Program-made: the position numbers and the translations under genes
Source of the DNA: Actinomycetota bacterium
Lineage (GTDB): Bacteria > Actinomycetota > Acidimicrobiia > Acidimicrobiales > JAJPHD01
DNA: 64,000 nt
NCBI GenBank assembly: GCA_021325455.1
Contig: JAJPHD010000010.1
Span: 257,248-321,247 of the forward strand
Direction of reading: 5' to 3'
Part shown: one piece after another, positions 8,272-13,609 of the stretch
Layout: every line of letters starts with the position of its first letter
How positions within the stretch are numbered: the first letter of the stretch is position 1
The notes under the pieces: model-generated
The model's input: the letters and a program-made list of their open reading frames with translations, nothing else
Told to the model about the DNA's origin: nothing
Databases searched by the model: none

Positions 8272-9189
8272 TCAGCCCACCAGGGGAAGCGCCCTCACCT
8301 CCGCCGGCACCGGTCCGGGACAGCCCTCCCAGCGCACCGCCAACCCGGCCGGCGGCTCCACCTCCCGCCTCACGTAGGCCAGCGCCACCCCGGCGCCGAG
8401 GCCGGGGGAGAACGCCACCGTCGTGAGCGACCCCAGCACCCGCTCGCCGTCCACCAGCTCCGCCCCGGTGGGAGGGAGCTCCCCCTGGGACCGGTCAGCC
8501 ATCACGATGCCCCGGAGACGCCTGGGCACCCGCGACCCTCTGGCGTCGATGCGCGCCACAAGCTCCTGTCCCGTGTAGCAGCCCTTGGTGAAGCTCACCG
8601 CCAGCCCGACCACTCCCGCCTCGGCGGGGATCGTGCGCTCCCCCAGCTCGCTCCCCATGGCGGGGAAGCCCGCCTCCACCCGCACCGCAGCCAGGGCGTC
8701 GGGGCTGCACAGGGGGACTCCCCCTGGGGGCTCCACCGCCGGGCCCAGGAGGTCCACCCCCGGGGCGCCGGGCCAGAAGCACGGCACCACGAGCGGCGCC
8801 GCCTCGCCTGCCGCCACCGAGGAGGCCCGGGGCCCCCGCAGCGCCAGGCAACGCCACCCCACCAGGGGCTCCAGGTCCACCTTCATCCGCAGACGGAACC
8901 GGGCCAGGCGGGCCAGGACGGCCTCCCCCCAGCCGCCGTCCACGTCGAGGACCATGGTGTCGTCGCCCGTCCGGGTGACCCGGAGGAAGGCGTCCACCTT
9001 CCCCTGGGGCTGCAGCAGCAGGGACAGCGCCGAGGCGCCTTCCTCCAGGGCGGCCACGTCCTGGCTGAGCTGGCCCTGGAGGTACTCCACGGCCTGGGGG
9101 CCCGAGGCGATGAGGACGTCCCGGGGGACCGGGACCGCCCCCACCTCCTCCCGCAGCGCCCGGTACTCCCCGGCCAGGTCCCCGCTCAC
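8272..9189 (-). CDS. YgfZ/GcvT-family folate-binding protein
   Basis: Aminomethyltransferase-fold signature (YRALREEVG..., GPQAVEYLQGQLSQDV, KGCYTGQE). The start is placed at GTG 9189, forming a GTGA overlap with the trpE stop. Confidence 0.75.
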   Translation of the reverse strand: MSGDLAGEYRALREEVGAVPVPRDVLIASGPQAVEYLQGQLSQDVAALEEGASALSLLLQPQGKVDAFLRVTRTGDDTMVLDVDGGWGEAVLARLARFRLRMKVDLEPLVGWRCLALRGPRASSVAAGEAAPLVVPCFWPGAPGVDLLGPAVEPPGGVPLCSPDALAAVRVEAGFPAMGSELGERTIPAEAGVVGLAVSFTKGCYTGQELVARIDARGSRVPRRLRGIVMADRSQGELPPTGAELVDGERVLGSLTTVAFSPGLGAGVALAYVRREVEPPAGLAVRWEGCPGPVPAEVRALPLVG

Positions 9190-10787
9190 GGCCCCACCAC
9201 CGCCAGGCCGGTTCCCGGCGCTCCCGGGGAGCCCAGCGGCCCGTCCCAACCCAGACGGGCCGCCGTCATGCGCCGGGCCGCCGGCACCGCCGCCAGCAGG
9301 GCGGCGGCCTTGCTGGCACATTCCCTGTCCTCGGCGGCGGGGTCGCTGTCGGCCACGATGCCCGCCCCGGCCTGCACCGATGCCCGCCCGTCCGGTCCCA
9401 CCAGCATGGTGCGGATGGCTATGGCAGTGTCCAGGTTGCCCGAGAAGTCGAGGTAGCCCACCACTCCGGCATAGGGCCCCCTCTTGGTTGGCTCCAGCTC
9501 GTCGATGATCTCCATGGCCCTCACCTTGGGCGCCCCCGAGACGGTGCCCGCCGGCAGGGTGGCCCGCAGGACGTCCACCGGCCCCAGGCCCGGCCGCAGC
9601 TGGCCCGACACCTGCGAGGTTAGGTGCATGACATGGCTGTAGCGCTCCAGGGTCATGAGCTCGTCCACACGCCGGGTCCCGTATACGGCGACCCGGCCCA
9701 CGTCGTTGCGGGCCAGGTCGACCAGCATCACGTGCTCGGCCCGCTCCTTGGGGTGCTCAGCCAGCTCGGCGGCCAGCCGCCGGTCCTCCTCCTCGGTCCG
9801 GCCCCGCCGGCGGGTCCCGGCGATCGGCCTGGAGACCACCCGCCCTCCGAGCACCCGGACCATGGGCTCGGGGGACGACCCCACCACGGTCACGGACGGG
9901 TGGCGCACGAAGTACATGTAAGGGCTCGGGTTGACCTGGCGCAGCACCCGGTACACGTCGAACGGCTCGGCCGCCACGTCCAGGTCGAAGCGCTGCGAGA
10001 GGACGACCTGGAAGATGTCGCCGGCTGCGATGTGCTCCTTGGCCACCTCAACGGCCCGCTGGTAGGCGGGCGCCGGCACCGTCCGCCTGAAGGCAGGAAG
10101 CGCCTCGCCGGCCACAGGCGGTGGCCCCAGGGCGGCCTGGGTGGGGAACAGCGGCCGACCCAGGTCGTGGGCCATGGACTCCAGGCGCCGGCCGGCGGCC
10201 AGCCAGGCCGCCTCCAGCTCATGGCGTCCCCACCCGGGATCGACCACGACATTGTCGATGAGCACCACCCGCTGGCGCCAGTGGTCGAAGGCCGCCAACT
10301 GGCCTATCACCGAGACGATGGCATCGGGGAAGCCCCGGTCGTCCGGGGGGATGCTGGGAAGGTGCTCGACTTCCCTCACCACGTCGTAGCCGAGGTAGCC
10401 GACCACTCCCCCGTGGAGGGGAGGGAGCTCGGCCAGGGCCGGCGACCGGTAGGCGTCGAGCAGGGCGGAGAGGGCGGCCAGGGCACCCTGGTCGAGGGGC
10501 ACCGCCGCCCAGGCGGGGAGCCGGCCTTCCACCGACAGGGCCCGGCCCCGGGTGACCAGGGTGGCAGATGGGTTCCGGCCCACGAAGGAGAACCGGCCCC
10601 AGCGCTCCCCGCCCTCCACCGACTCGAGCAGGAAGCCCGGTCCGTCACCCACCACCCGCAGGAAGGCAGCCACGGGCGTGAGGGTGTCGGCCATGAGCTC
10701 CCGCCACACGGGCACGACGCTGTGCTCGCCGGCCAGAGACACGAAGTCCCCGAGGCCGGGCGAGCAGGGCCGGGTCGCAGCCGTCAC
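9186..10787 (-). CDS. trpE: anthranilate synthase component I
   Basis: Chorismate-binding motifs are present (LSQRF, GTRRRG, GAPKVRAMEII, GAGIVADSDP). The GTG start forms GTGA with the stop of the upstream groES-like gene. Confidence 0.95.
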   Translation of the reverse strand: MTAATRPCSPGLGDFVSLAGEHSVVPVWRELMADTLTPVAAFLRVVGDGPGFLLESVEGGERWGRFSFVGRNPSATLVTRGRALSVEGRLPAWAAVPLDQGALAALSALLDAYRSPALAELPPLHGGVVGYLGYDVVREVEHLPSIPPDDRGFPDAIVSVIGQLAAFDHWRQRVVLIDNVVVDPGWGRHELEAAWLAAGRRLESMAHDLGRPLFPTQAALGPPPVAGEALPAFRRTVPAPAYQRAVEVAKEHIAAGDIFQVVLSQRFDLDVAAEPFDVYRVLRQVNPSPYMYFVRHPSVTVVGSSPEPMVRVLGGRVVSRPIAGTRRRGRTEEEDRRLAAELAEHPKERAEHVMLVDLARNDVGRVAVYGTRRVDELMTLERYSHVMHLTSQVSGQLRPGLGPVDVLRATLPAGTVSGAPKVRAMEIIDELEPTKRGPYAGVVGYLDFSGNLDTAIAIRTMLVGPDGRASVQAGAGIVADSDPAAEDRECASKAAALLAAVPAARRMTAARLGWDGPLGSPGAPGTGLAVVGP

Positions 10788-11077
10788 AGGTAGAGCCCCG
10801 TGCCACCATCGATGCGGTCGCTGGCCACGGCGTGGATGTCCCGCTCGCGGAGTATCAGGTAGTCCTCCCCCTGGACCTCCACCTCGTAGCGGTCCTCGGG
10901 GCTGAACAAGACGTTGTCACCGGCCTTGATGGTCCTCACGTGGGGGCCCACCGCCACCACCTCGGCCCACGCCAGCCGCTTGGACATCTGGGCCGTGGCC
11001 GGTATCAGGATCCCGCCCCGGGACCGGCGCTCCCCCTCCGCCTGGGGGATCTGGACCAGCACCCTGTCGGACAGCAT
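10784..11077 (-). CDS. GroES (Cpn10) family protein, 97 aa, with a C-terminal extension ending GGTGLYL
   Basis: It aligns by eye to GroES: DRVLVQ...GGILIP...AEVVAVGP...AGDNVLF...GEDYLILRERDIHAV. Only the last 97 codons of ORF 10784..11722 look genuine. Confidence 0.75.
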   Translation of the reverse strand: MLSDRVLVQIPQAEGERRSRGGILIPATAQMSKRLAWAEVVAVGPHVRTIKAGDNVLFSPEDRYEVEVQGEDYLILRERDIHAVASDRIDGGTGLYL

Positions 11078-11143
11078 GGTTATGGGTTGCTTGGGGCTGC
11101 GCTTGGCGTCGGACACCACACCTTGACGGTACCGTCTCGACCC

Positions 11144-11764
11144 GTGGTGATCGAACCAGTCAGCCTCAGGACCTCCGACGGCCTCCTTCTCGAGGGAGAG
11201 CTCTCCGTGCCCGAGCCCACCTGGGCGGCGGCCGTGCTGGCCCACCCCCACCCCCTCTACGGGGGCTCGATGCGCTCTATCGTCACCGGTGCCCTCTTCG
11301 AGGGCCTGTCCCGCGAGGGGGTGGCCTGCCTGCGCTTCAACTTCCGGGGGGTGGGGGCCTCGGAGGGGGAGCATGACGAGGGCCGCGGCGAGCGCGACGA
11401 CATCGTGGCCGCCCTGGACGTCCTGGAGCCCATAACCGAAGGGCTCCCGCTCGCCCTTTGCGGGTGGTCCTTCGGCGCCGACACCGCCCTTTGCGTCGGG
11501 GACGCCCGGGTGGGCGGCTGGCTGGCCGTGGCCCCCCCCTTGCGTGACGTGGCCCGGCCACTGATGGTGGCCCCCAACGACCCCCGCCCCACCCTCCTCG
11601 CCGTCCCGGAGAACGACCAGTTCAACCCCCCGGCCCGGGCCCGGCCCACAGTGGAGGGCTGGCAGGCCACCCGCCTGGTGGTGGTCGAGGGAGCTGACCA
11701 CTTCCTCGTGGGCAAGACCCATCGGGCCGTGGAACTGGCCCTGGACCTCCTGGGAGACCTCTAG
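11144..11764 (+). CDS. alpha/beta-hydrolase fold protein
   Basis: Nucleophile elbow GWSFG, HPHPLYGG and a C-terminal GADHF are present. The start is GTG at 11144 or 11147. The upstream part of ORF 10832..11764 is antisense to the groES-like gene. Confidence 0.7.
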   Translation: MVIEPVSLRTSDGLLLEGELSVPEPTWAAAVLAHPHPLYGGSMRSIVTGALFEGLSREGVACLRFNFRGVGASEGEHDEGRGERDDIVAALDVLEPITEGLPLALCGWSFGADTALCVGDARVGGWLAVAPPLRDVARPLMVAPNDPRPTLLAVPENDQFNPPARARPTVEGWQATRLVVVEGADHFLVGKTHRAVELALDLLGDL

Positions 11765-12741
11765 CCGAGGGTTAGCCAGCCCCGCCGACGGAACAGGGCC
11801 AGCAGGCCGATGGCCGCCACCAGCTCGGTTCCTATCCCCACGCCCACGAAGACGGGCAGGCCGGCGATGTTGCCCACGAGGAAGCCGAAGTTCTGGCCGA
11901 AGAACCCGGTGAGGAAGGAAAGGGGCAGGAAGACGGTGGCGATGATGGTGAGCTGCTTCATGACCTGGTTGAGCCGGTTGGAGACCGTGGACAGGTACAC
12001 GTCCATGGCCCCGTTCACGAGGTCCCGGTAGCTGTCGGTGAGGTCACCCAGGCGGATGAGGTGGTCGTAGACATCCCGGAAGTACCTCTGCCCCTCCTGG
12101 GTCAGCCCGGGAAGCTCCGAGCCCCCCGCCAGCAGCGAGGCGAACAGGTCCCTCTGGGGCCCGAGGACCCGGCGTAGGGCGAGGAGGTCCCGCTTCATGT
12201 CGAACAGGCGGCCCAGCTGCTCCTCCCGGGGCTGGAGCAGGATGTCGTCCTGCAGGGCGTCAACCCGGTCGTCGTAGGAGTTGAGCACCGTGAAGAAGCT
12301 GTCCACCAGCCCGTCGGCCATGCGGTAGAGGAGGGCCGTCTGGTCGGAGACGGGCAGGTGGCGGCGCTCGTGACGTGCCCTGAGGCCGGCGAAGGCCGGG
12401 CAGTCCTCCCGGTGCACGGTGACCAGGCAGGTGCGGGAGAAGAAGCAATGGACCTCGACCAAGGCCTCCTCGACCGCCCCGGGGCCCGGGACGGCTCCGT
12501 ATAGGACGAGGAAGACGAAGTCGTCGTAGTCCTCCAGCTTGGGCCGCTGCCCGAAGTTGTGGGCGTCCTCCACGGCCAGGGGATGGAAGGCGAAGACGTC
12601 GGACAGGAGCGCCAGCTCAGCCTGGTCGGGGCTCTGGAGGTCCAGCCAGAAGGGCCCTCCCTCCTCCAGAAGGCGACGGAGCGAATCGGCCCGGACCCCG
12701 GTGGAGACCGTGCCGTCGTGGTTCACGAGGAAGCTGCTCAA
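11761..12741 (-). CDS. corA: CorA-family divalent cation transporter (GQN variant of the GMN motif)
   Basis: Two C-terminal TM helices carry FFGQNFGF. The TTG start at 12741 is preceded by GGAGG with 4 nt of spacing. Confidence 0.85.
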   Translation of the reverse strand: MSSFLVNHDGTVSTGVRADSLRRLLEEGGPFWLDLQSPDQAELALLSDVFAFHPLAVEDAHNFGQRPKLEDYDDFVFLVLYGAVPGPGAVEEALVEVHCFFSRTCLVTVHREDCPAFAGLRARHERRHLPVSDQTALLYRMADGLVDSFFTVLNSYDDRVDALQDDILLQPREEQLGRLFDMKRDLLALRRVLGPQRDLFASLLAGGSELPGLTQEGQRYFRDVYDHLIRLGDLTDSYRDLVNGAMDVYLSTVSNRLNQVMKQLTIIATVFLPLSFLTGFFGQNFGFLVGNIAGLPVFVGVGIGTELVAAIGLLALFRRRGWLTLG

Positions 12742-12802
12742 GGTACCTCCGCCGCCACCGTCCAGCCGGCATGAGGCTCGGCCGGCCACGGGGCGAGGGA
12801 GG

Positions 12803-13609
12803 TCACCCGACCCTCTCACATGCCGCCATGGCCTCCTTCAGGCTCATTCGGCCTTCACGAAGCGCCATCCCCACGATGACCCCATCGAGGCGATTGCCAT
12901 TGCGCTCGAGACCGGCCAGGGCGGCCAGGTCGTCACACGAGGCTACCCCACCCGAGGCCACCACCGGGAGGGCGGTGGCCTCCAGGACAGCCGCCAGGCC
13001 CTCCATATCGGGGCCGGTCATGGTGCCGTCGCGCCCGATGTCGGTCACCACCACGGCAGCCACGCCGGCATCCTCGAACCGTCGCACCACGTCCAGCAGG
13101 CTCTCCCCGGAGGCCTCGGTCCAGCCCCGGAGGGCGACCCGGGCGTTGGCCACCGAAGAGGCCGGCTCCCCTGCTCGGGCCGGCCGGTTGGCAATCGACG
13201 CCCCGGCGCGCCGGTGGTCGAGGCTCACCGCCACCTGGCCGGGGTGCTTCCTGGCCAGGCGGCGCACCAGCCCCGGGTGCTCCAGGGCGGCGGTGCCCAG
13301 CACCACCCGGGACACGCCCATGGCCAGGAGGGACTTGGCCGCTTCCTCGTTGCGTATGCCCCCGCCCACCTGGACCAGGACCCCGGCCTCGATGGCCAGG
13401 GCGGCGATGCGGCTGATCAGGTCACGCTGGACGGGGACCCCGGTCCGGGCGGCATCGAGGTCGACCAGGTGCAGGTGGCGCGCCCCCGCCGCCACGAGCC
13501 CTTCGGCTGTGGCCACCGGATCCCCGAAGCAACGCTCCCGGGAGAAGTCTCCCTGCACCAGGCGGACGGACTGGCCGCCGCGCACGTCGATGGCCGGATA
13601 GAGATCCAC
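12803..13609 (-). CDS. hisA: HisA/PriA-type (beta/alpha)8 phosphoribosyl isomerase
   Basis: MDLYPAIDVRGGQSVRLVQGD, VGGGIR and VTDIGRDGTMTGPD are present. There is a ~25-aa insertion around RRAGASIANRPARAGEPASS. Confidence 0.9.
   Translation of the reverse strand: MDLYPAIDVRGGQSVRLVQGDFSRERCFGDPVATAEGLVAAGARHLHLVDLDAARTGVPVQRDLISRIAALAIEAGVLVQVGGGIRNEEAAKSLLAMGVSRVVLGTAALEHPGLVRRLARKHPGQVAVSLDHRRAGASIANRPARAGEPASSVANARVALRGWTEASGESLLDVVRRFEDAGVAAVVVTDIGRDGTMTGPDMEGLAAVLEATALPVVASGGVASCDDLAALAGLERNGNRLDGVIVGMALREGRMSLKEAMAACERVG

Follow-up and report, generated by a model that had tools for sequence, protein, structure and literature searches.

The bacterial proteasome is served by only a few described partners, and reviews up to 2025 list three interactors, namely Mpa/ARC, PafE/Bpa and Cpa (PMC8223512; PMC12288473). 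Mpa/ARC is a hexameric AAA ATPase and PafE/Bpa is a dodecameric, ATP-independent ring, so that the two interactors with a described ring symmetry do not match the seven-fold alpha-ring of the 20S particle. Although these two activators are unrelated, both dock and open the gate through a C-terminal GQYL motif, which is required for gate opening and in which the Gln is reported to be dispensable (PMC12288473; PMC8223512), whereas the ARCs of actinobacteria without a proteasome lack the motif (PMC3511204). In eukaryotes, the 11S activators PA26 and PA28 (REG) are heptameric, ATP-independent rings of a helical-bundle fold with a central opening, whose seven C-terminal tails occupy the seven alpha-ring pockets; these tails lack the penultimate Tyr and the gate is opened by an activation loop. 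The GroES/Cpn10 co-chaperonin (Pfam PF00166; e.g. M. tuberculosis Cpn10, PDB 1p3h) is a heptameric beta-barrel lid for GroEL, and two of its relatives are relevant here. The chloroplast co-chaperonin Cpn11/20/23 caps ClpP (PDB 7ekq), its mobile loops inserting into the ClpP clefts and slowing proteolysis (bioRxiv 10.1101/2021.07.26.453741), and the N-domain of Cpn20 lacks the roof hairpin. Gp31 of bacteriophage T4 (PDB 1g31) works with GroEL only, has a long mobile loop, and naturally lacks the roof hairpin, which gives a more open dome.

In this work we examined a GroES-like gene located at the head of a trp cluster in an actinobacterial contig. An earlier note, made from the sequence alone, described a 97-aa GroES/Cpn10 protein ending in G-L-Y-L after a flexible Gly-rich linker, proposed it as a possible seven-fold proteasome-docking cap, allowed that the ending could be coincidence, and remarked on its odd position, GTGA-coupled to trpE. 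The observation was confirmed, with one correction that concerns the start codon, while the proposed function was only partly supported, and proteasome docking remains an inference from sequence.

The gene and its product

The features of the locus, in positions of the window (the whole 64-kb stretch of DNA that was analysed), are as follows.
10784..11119 (-): probable full coding sequence of the GroES-like protein, 111 aa from GTG 11119 (alternative GTG 11116), stop TGA at 10786-10784; the 97-aa frame of the earlier note is the part from ATG 11077
11078..11092 (-): codons for K-Q-P-I-T, conserved residues upstream of the ATG, corresponding to the first beta-strand of GroES (NIKPL), which forms the subunit interface in GroES heptamers
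10979..11047 (-): mobile-loop region, residues 11-33 of the 97-aa numbering (...GERRSRGGILIPATAQMSK)
10937..10942 (-): site of the roof-hairpin deletion, between H46 and V47
10799..10816 (-): predicted flexible linker R88-T93 (RIDGGT), beyond the point where canonical GroES ends
10787..10798 (-): terminal G94-L95-Y96-L97 (G-x-Y-L-COOH), the candidate proteasome alpha-ring docking motif
10784..10787 (-): GTGA, in which the TGA stop of the GroES-like gene and the GTG start of trpE overlap
9186..10787 (-): trpE (anthranilate synthase component I), the downstream gene on the same strand, given as context only

The 97-aa frame reads MLSDRVLV...ILRERDIHAVASDRIDGGTGLYL, and its residues 1-84 match Pfam Cpn10 with an E-value of 6.5e-20 and 71.4 bits against a gathering cut-off of 21.1. 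No other Pfam domain passed its cut-off (ADH_N, with E 0.08, fell below it) and no AAA or OB domain was found, and the protein shows no sequence or fold relationship to ARC or Bpa. The five residues upstream of the ATG are conserved as K-[QL]-[PA]-I-[TKSQ] in about 90 related loci, in which position 1 is often a GTG/Val codon, and they align with the first beta-strand of canonical GroES. The true start is therefore probably upstream, at GTG 11119 or 11116, and the identical 111-aa product was also chosen by an independent JGI gene call, which shows the same 4-nt overlap with trpE. This overlap suggests translational coupling. The trpE product itself was identified by Pfam Chorismate_bind (2.9e-92) and Anth_synt_I_N (2e-30).

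Sequence and structure comparisons indicate a divergent paralog rather than the housekeeping GroES. The AlphaFold2 model has a core with pLDDT of 80-94, and its 30 best Foldseek hits are all Cpn10/GroES (E down to 3e-6), led by M. tuberculosis Cpn10 and GroES in GroEL complexes; Cpn20 of complex 7ekq was also hit, and T4 Gp31 appeared as a weak hit at rank 33. The predicted fold is thus a GroES beta-barrel, without the helical fold and activation loop of the PA28 type. However, the protein falls below the cut-offs of all 15 NCBIfam GroES models (PRK00364 equivalogs), with a best score of 54 bits against a cut-off of 96. Identity to canonical GroES is 34-40%, with conserved first and last strands. 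In an alignment of four family members from four clades with canonical GroES of E. coli, M. tuberculosis and Nonomuraea, all four members lack the 10 residues of the roof hairpin that closes the GroES dome (e.g. GNWDEDGDKRIP), and they carry a 10-11-residue C-terminal extension that is absent from the canonical sequences. Consistent with the deletion, the Pfam match places 84 residues on 89 profile positions, and the best sequence match in the PDB is the likewise roofless N-domain of Cpn20. The mobile loop, in contrast, keeps the G-[IL]-[LV]-I-P-x-T-A core of actinobacterial GroES (G-I-L-I-P-A-T-A in this protein; G-L-V-I-P-x-T-A in canonical actinobacterial GroES), with G22, I25, P26, T28 and A29 invariant, and its pLDDT below 50 is as expected for a disordered loop. 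Judged from sequence alone, it thus retains the hydrophobic tripeptide for GroEL binding. Invariant residues specific to the family are W37 and R77-E78-x-D80.

Conservation of the C-terminal motif

Conservation of the tail among orthologues, which had been named beforehand as a condition for the idea, holds strongly. Of 485 family sequences pooled from three actinobacterial clades, 459 end in G-x-Y-[LM], and the remaining 26 look like read-throughs, frameshifts or truncations. Among the 459, Gly and Tyr are invariant (459/459 each), the last residue is Leu in 456, and x is L in 315, Q in 123, M in 20 and R in one; most members thus differ from Mpa and PafE in having Leu rather than Gln at position -3. 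The ending is essentially invariant across Acidimicrobiia, Micrococcales, Streptosporangiales and a soil Actinomycetota clade, and in the latter 117 of 120 sequences end in exactly GQYL, the docking motif of Mpa and PafE. In the 64-kb window, the GroES-like gene is the only ORF of at least 60 codons that ends in G-x-Y-[LM]. The motif is therefore far beyond chance. The linker that precedes it is variable in sequence and rich in D/E/G/S/A, but nearly fixed in length (tails of 13-16 residues), and the low pLDDT (below 50 for residues 93-97, mean 46 for residues 91-97) suggests that it is flexible, as is the stretch preceding the motif in PafE.

We considered whether the tail is conserved only because it overlaps trpE or its ribosome-binding site. 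This was rejected, since the overlap is only 4 nt, the tail is equally conserved where no downstream gene overlaps it, and synonymous codons vary freely, all those for Gly, Leu and Tyr being used, which shows that selection acts on the protein. A role in tryptophan synthesis was likewise rejected as a general explanation. The remark of the earlier note on the odd position of the gene is correct, but the order hisA - GroES-like gene - trpE is specific to a lineage, being conserved in 77 of 80 Acidimicrobiales loci, and the context differs in Micrococcales, in Nonomuraea and in the GQYL clade. In none of the loci examined does the gene form a groES-groEL operon or lie adjacent to groEL.

Every named hit of the family belongs to Actinomycetota. 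In Nonomuraea gerenzanensis, the only complete genome inspected, a member ending in HGTGLYL coexists with a canonical groES-groEL1 operon located elsewhere and with arc (ending in NTGQYL)-dop-pup-prcB-prcA-pafA, so that co-occurrence with 20S genes in a same genome rests on this single case. A neighbourhood link to the proteasome was not found: no pup or proteasome gene was detected in the window, in 10 kb further to its left, or within 10 kb of the gene in about 95 related loci from four clades. The search covered the window, the 80 Acidimicrobiales loci, Micrococcales, the GQYL clade, another clade and Nonomuraea, all at +/-10 kb, and tblastn with M. tuberculosis PrcB, the T. acidophilum alpha and beta subunits and the Nonomuraea ARC, Dop, Pup, PrcB, PrcA and PafA returned nothing. 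A metagenome scan for an Acidimicrobiia PrcB, seeded with M. tuberculosis PrcB plus T. acidophilum beta, returned only mycobacterial loci at 81-100% identity, and the 20S structures found in the PDB are only those of M. tuberculosis and Rhodococcus. A small conserved ORF of 66-69 aa, convergent with the gene in the GQYL clade, was checked as a possible Pup and is not one, as it has no Pup-like sequence and no GGQ/GGE end.

Possible functions and their significance

Based on these data, we hypothesize that the gene encodes a GroES paralog remodelled into a ring-shaped, ATP-independent partner of the actinobacterial 20S proteasome, a reading that we regard as somewhat more likely than not. What our analysis establishes is confined to sequence and predicted structure: the GroES-type barrel, the retention of the N- and C-terminal strands that join GroES subunits into heptamers, the loss of the roof hairpin, and the gain of a predicted disordered extension of about 10 residues ending in the conserved G-x-Y-L-COOH. 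All the rest is inferred, including the assembly of seven subunits into an open ring, binding to the 20S particle and activation. In this view, the seven tails would insert into the seven pockets between PrcA alpha-subunits, the terminal carboxylate would pair with the conserved pocket lysine, and the penultimate Tyr would trigger gate opening, as for the GQYL tails of Mpa/ARC and PafE/Bpa. The result would be a symmetry-matched cap, functionally like the 11S activators despite the unrelated fold, but with a tail of the HbYX/GQYL type. The roof deletion and the tightly constrained tail length, two features that the earlier note did not see, also fit an open ring cap, and the complex 7ekq offers a precedent for a GroES-fold heptamer on a seven-fold protease ring, although the target there is ClpP, the contact is made by mobile loops, the effect is inhibitory, and there is no C-terminal docking tail. 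T4 Gp31 likewise has no G-x-Y-L tail. Some observations weigh against the hypothesis. There is no neighbourhood link to the proteasome, and co-occurrence in the same genome rests on a single genome. A published genome-wide search of M. tuberculosis, which has a 20S proteasome, for GQYL-like C-termini reports only Bpa (PMC8223512), so the family seems absent there and is not a universal proteasome component; one member comes from a MAG labelled Bifidobacteriaceae, a family that is not known to have a 20S proteasome; and the strongly conserved mobile loop argues that GroEL binding has been kept and could be the main function. It is also possible that the loops contact substrates or the alpha-ring.

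Among the alternatives, the one that survives best, although we consider it unlikely, is that the protein is a specialised co-chaperonin for one of the actinobacterial GroEL paralogs, in which the mobile loops would bind GroEL as usual and the missing roof and the tail would tune the folding chamber or bind GroEL or a client, with no role at the proteasome. The GroES fold prediction and the mobile-loop core support it, databases annotate members as 'GroES family chaperonin', and in three contigs of the GQYL clade an orphan groEL with a GGM-type C-terminus lies 4-8.5 kb away. Nevertheless, the canonical GroES sequences aligned here have no such tail, our literature searches returned no GroEL site that reads a C-terminal G-x-Y-L, the gene is never adjacent to groEL in the loci examined, and the invariant positions are those of the proteasome motif, with Q, L and M varying at the one position reported as dispensable. 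This alternative does not exclude our hypothesis, since the protein could bind both partners. A more speculative and improbable extension is that a roofless lid with GroEL-binding loops and a proteasome-docking tail physically couples the two seven-fold machines, either shuttling between GroEL and the 20S proteasome or bridging them; in the bridging case, clients that fail to fold in the GroEL cage would be handed through the open lid directly into the proteasome without ATP-dependent unfoldases, as a chaperonin-to-proteasome triage device.

It is also doubtful that the tail is a degron or auto-inhibitory peptide of the protein itself, or that it stabilises the oligomer by packing on a neighbouring subunit. 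The tail is short, terminal, hydrophobic at its tip and preceded by a predicted disordered acidic linker, and C-terminal degrons are common in bacteria, but the invariance of Gly(-4) and Tyr(-2) together with a constrained linker length, over clades only 50-55% identical in the core, is more than we would expect from a degron; moreover, AlphaFold2 does not dock the tail on the monomer, and no reader of such a degron other than the 20S pocket itself is known in actinobacteria. Least likely is a cap for ClpP1P2, also a seven-fold ring, with the loops and/or the hydrophobic tail in the ClpP hydrophobic clefts, which is suggested by the Cpn20 matches but opposed by the facts that in 7ekq the loops bind and not a C-terminal tail, that E. 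coli GroES had no effect on ClpP (bioRxiv 10.1101/2021.07.26.453741), that ClpP clefts read internal (I/L)GF loops, and that ClpP is nearly universal in bacteria while the family was found only in Actinomycetota, the phylum with 20S proteasomes.

Literature searches on GroES-like or co-chaperonin partners of the bacterial proteasome, on GLYL and HbYX tails and on the proteasome of Acidimicrobiia gave nothing relevant beyond Mpa, Bpa, Cpa and the chloroplast Cpn20-ClpP complex, and no paper found describes such a protein. The family is nonetheless abundant, with at least 593 species-level genomes matched in one scan; it is dominant in soil and freshwater Acidimicrobiia and also occurs in the culturable genera Cellulosimicrobium, Isoptericola, Sanguibacter, Xylanimonas and Nonomuraea. 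If the tail turns out to bind something other than the proteasome, that partner would be a new reader of the G-x-Y-L-COOH signal. A GroES-derived heptamer with GQYL-type tails, on the other hand, would be the first symmetry-matched bacterial cap and a functional analogue of the eukaryotic 11S activators, a third independent invention of the same docking motif, and a direct evolutionary link between the chaperonin and proteasome systems.

A GroES-fold paralog with a C-terminal extension

As shown, the minus strand of the window encodes a 97-aa protein ending in ...ILRERDIHAVASDRIDGGTGLYL, which the earlier note had described as a GroES-fold protein ending in G-L-Y-L and had interpreted as a possible proteasome-docking cap. 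The features of this region are:
11077 to 10786-10784, minus strand: ATG to stop TGA of the 97-aa reading frame.
10784-10787, minus strand: tetranucleotide GTGA, shared by this stop and the GTG start of the next gene, identified as trpE by Pfam (Chorismate_bind 2.9e-92, Anth_synt_I_N 2e-30).
11119/11116, minus strand: GTG codons, the most likely true start.

The protein matches Pfam Cpn10 over residues 1-84 (E 6.5e-20, 71 bits against a cut-off of 21), but falls below every curated NCBIfam GroES model (best 54 bits against a cut-off of 96). An AlphaFold2 model built on 43 family sequences shows a confident beta-barrel core (pLDDT 80-94), with low confidence in the mobile-loop region and in the last residues, and Foldseek places this model among Cpn10/GroES structures, with Mtb Cpn10 1p3h at the top. 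The observation made in the earlier note therefore stands, since this is a GroES-fold protein with extra residues at the C-terminus, although its start needs a correction. In about 90 related loci the five residues upstream of the ATG are conserved as K-[Q/L]-[P/A]-I-[T/K/S], 'residue 1' is often a GTG/Val codon, and these upstream residues align with the first strand of canonical GroES, NIKPL. The protein therefore begins upstream, most likely at GTG 11119/11116, giving the 111-aa product that was also chosen by an independent JGI gene call (protein entry P0001).

Alignment of four family members from four clades with the canonical GroES of Nonomuraea, M. tuberculosis and E. coli revealed a clean 10-residue deletion of the roof hairpin and a 10-11-residue C-terminal extension. 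The actinobacterial mobile-loop core (G-[IL]-[LV]-I-P-x-T-A, invariant in the family) is retained, as are the first and last strands, which pair between neighbouring subunits in GroES heptamers, and new family-specific invariant residues (W37, R77-E78-x-D80) appear as well. The best sequence match in the PDB is the N-terminal domain of chloroplast Cpn20 in entry 7ekq, which also lacks the roof.

Conservation of the terminal G-x-Y-L

One terminal G-x-Y-L in a genome would mean nothing, but this is the only ORF of at least 60 codons in the window with such an end, and what matters is its conservation across the family, which was examined in four sets of sequences.

C-terminal residues of the GroES-like family in the sets searched
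120 closest database clusters (85-100% identity, Acidimicrobiales MAGs): 119 GLYL, 1 GLYM.
Best 150 representatives at 50% clustering (identity to the window down to about 50%; one distant multi-domain hit at 31%): 86 GLYL, 4 GQYL, 2 GMYL; most of the rest look like frameshifts, read-throughs or fragments.
Micrococcales subfamily (Sanguibacter, Flavimobilis, Cellulosimicrobium, Oerskovia, Isoptericola, Promicromonospora, Xylanimonas, Myceligenerans and others): 101/118 TGLYL; the rest single-residue variants (AGLYL, PGLYL, TGMYL, TGLYM, TGQYL, GGLYL, TDMYL).
Large clade of soil 'Actinomycetota bacterium' sequences: 117/120 exactly GQYL.

Pooling all sequences with an intact core motif gave 485, of which 459 end in G-x-Y-[L/M]. 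Among these, Gly(-4) and Tyr(-2) are each present in 459/459, position -1 is Leu in 456 and Met in 3, and position -3 is Leu in 315, Gln in 123, Met in 20 and Arg in 1. Of the 26 exceptions, several keep the motif internally after a missed stop codon, most of the rest look like frameshifts or truncations, and three differ by a single residue in or beside the motif. Database entries such as P0135, P0149, P0185 and P0265 (and P0133, P0137, P0198 and P0211) read through the stop after ...TGLYL, which in P0135 appears as W, and some continue into what looks like HisI sequence (…LVPAIAQD…MMAWMN). These seem to be gene-calling or assembly artefacts. The entries would also mean that hisI follows the gene in some genomes. 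In the representative library, a 3803-aa protein (P0219) matches the 97-aa query in 10 separate stretches at about 31% identity, and appears to be a giant protein with many Cpn10-like repeats.

The 8-9 residues preceding the motif vary freely and are rich in D, E, G, S and A, whereas the tail length is held to 13-16 residues after the core motif. Across 95 loci the last four codons use all four Gly codons, six Leu codons and both Tyr codons, and the constraint is therefore on the protein. The tail is equally conserved in lineages where no gene follows or overlaps it.

Distribution, gene context and proteasome genes

One scan of species-representative genomes matched at least 593 loci, the best 80 of which are all Acidimicrobiales/Acidimicrobiaceae/Ilumatobacteraceae MAGs. 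In these 80 the order hisA - this gene - trpE - gcvT/ygfZ-like - trpC - (trpF) - trpB - trpA is conserved, with trpE downstream in 77/80 and hisA upstream in 72/80. Further features of this block in the window are:
11207-11764, plus strand: small alpha/beta-hydrolase gene.
11761-12819, minus strand: corA Mg2+ transporter gene.
8272-9321, minus strand: GcvT/YgfZ-like folate-binding protein gene (Pfam GCV_T + GCV_T_C), embedded between trpE and trpC and conserved there in 65 of 80 related loci.

The first two genes sit between hisA and the GroES-like gene (11207-12819), and since in most related Acidimicrobiales genomes hisA lies directly upstream (about 870 nt), this pair looks like a local insertion into the his-trp block. 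A separate trpF (PRAI) gene lies between trpC and trpB. In other lineages the neighbours differ. In Micrococcales the gene is divergent from bcp and thioredoxin, in the GQYL clade it lies between a methyltransferase or acyl-CoA dehydrogenases and a small ORF plus fpg, in another clade it is found beside haem-synthesis genes, and in Nonomuraea it lies among unrelated genes. The trp linkage is thus a lineage-specific arrangement, not a clue to function. In the GQYL clade the small ORF, a conserved acidic ORF of 66-69 aa with no Pfam hit (…WRYLD…YRMGL…; loci L171 10379-10579, L173 10374-10583 and L084 3163-3363), is convergent with the GroES-like gene, 3-10 nt after its stop, and is not Pup. In Sanguibacter sp. 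HDW7 and a Micrococcales MAG (L081 10536-20333; L082/L083 10546-20297), an integrated mobile element or prophage, with integrase, ParB-like, tail and lysis genes, starts right after the GroES-like gene, which suggests an integration hotspot at this spot.

Every named source organism is an actinobacterium. One family member ending in GGLYL (P0208, MDR1426598.1) comes from a 9,975-bp contig of a MAG labelled 'Bifidobacteriaceae bacterium'. Bifidobacteria are not known to possess the 20S proteasome, and if the label is right this is a counter-example to a proteasome-related role. No pup, arc, dop, pafA, prcA or prcB homologue was found in the 64-kb window, in the 10 kb to its left, or in a total of 1.54 Mb (window included) of family loci from four clades. 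A metagenome scan for the proteasome returned only mycobacterial prcB loci and no Acidimicrobiia sequence.

In PLSDB, the record NZ_LT559118.1 (loci L175-L177), labelled 'Nonomuraea gerenzanensis plasmid I' and almost unannotated there (10 features), is 11.85 Mb in length and carries groES-groEL1 and the whole pup-proteasome locus, so it is evidently the chromosome, mislabelled as a plasmid. Three relevant loci were identified:
4,062,271-4,062,579: family member ending in ...ETDHGTGLYL (Pfam Cpn10 3.9e-18).
About 1.637 Mb: canonical groES followed by a groEL with the His-rich C-terminus of actinobacterial GroEL1.
8.15-8.18 Mb: complete arc - dop - pup - prcB - prcA - pafA locus, confirmed by Pfam, whose ARC ends in ...NTGQYL.

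In at least one genome, then, the family is a paralog additional to housekeeping GroES, coexisting with a 20S proteasome whose ATPase carries T-G-Q-Y-L, while this protein carries T-G-L-Y-L. Previous studies reported that GQYL is the motif by which the unrelated activators Mpa/ARC and PafE/Bpa open the mycobacterial 20S gate, and that its Gln is not essential (PMC12288473; PMC8223512). ARCs from proteasome-less actinobacteria lack the motif, and Acidimicrobiales possess the pupylation locus (PMC3511204). The pattern of invariance in the family, with G, Y and L fixed and position -3 free among L/Q/M, is what that functional description predicts.

Hypothesized role and alternative explanations

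Our analyses establish a roofless GroES-fold paralog with conserved oligomerisation strands and a disordered extension of fixed length ending in G-x-Y-L-COOH, whereas ring formation, binding to the 20S core and gate opening are inferred. We hypothesize that the protein forms a heptameric open ring whose seven tails enter the seven inter-alpha pockets of the 20S core, and that it would then act as a symmetry-matched, ATP-independent cap that opens the gate, functionally like 11S activators but using the HbYX/GQYL type of tail. The conserved mobile loops could bind GroEL, capture substrate, or contact the alpha-ring. The evidence is strong for a conserved, functional C-terminal signal and only suggestive for the proteasome as its reader, with no evidence of binding, and we consider docking to the 20S core slightly more likely than not. 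The interpretation proposed in the earlier note is thus partly supported.

Among the alternatives, it is possible, although less likely, that the protein is a specialised GroEL co-chaperonin whose tail does something else. The conservation of the loop supports this reading, as does an orphan groEL with a GGM-type C-terminus located 4-8.5 kb away in three contigs of the GQYL clade, and this role is not exclusive of 20S docking. A degron or an intra-ring contact seems unlikely. Equally doubtful is a ClpP1P2 cap, by analogy with chloroplast Cpn11/20/23 on ClpP, where the mobile loops, not a tail, make the contact.

By homology the protein is a member of the Cpn10 superfamily, but it fails several defining features of canonical GroES, namely the curated thresholds, the roof hairpin and the operon. 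With the GQYL activators it shares only the motif and the phylum, not ancestry. Literature searches and targeted reading of recent reviews (up to 2025) found no description of a GroES-like proteasome partner or of this subfamily, and sequence sources simply call it 'co-chaperone GroES' or 'GroES family chaperonin'. We therefore regard the protein as a co-chaperonin scaffold carrying a tail of the proteasome-activator type and, if its role is confirmed, it would be a new class of bacterial proteasome activator.
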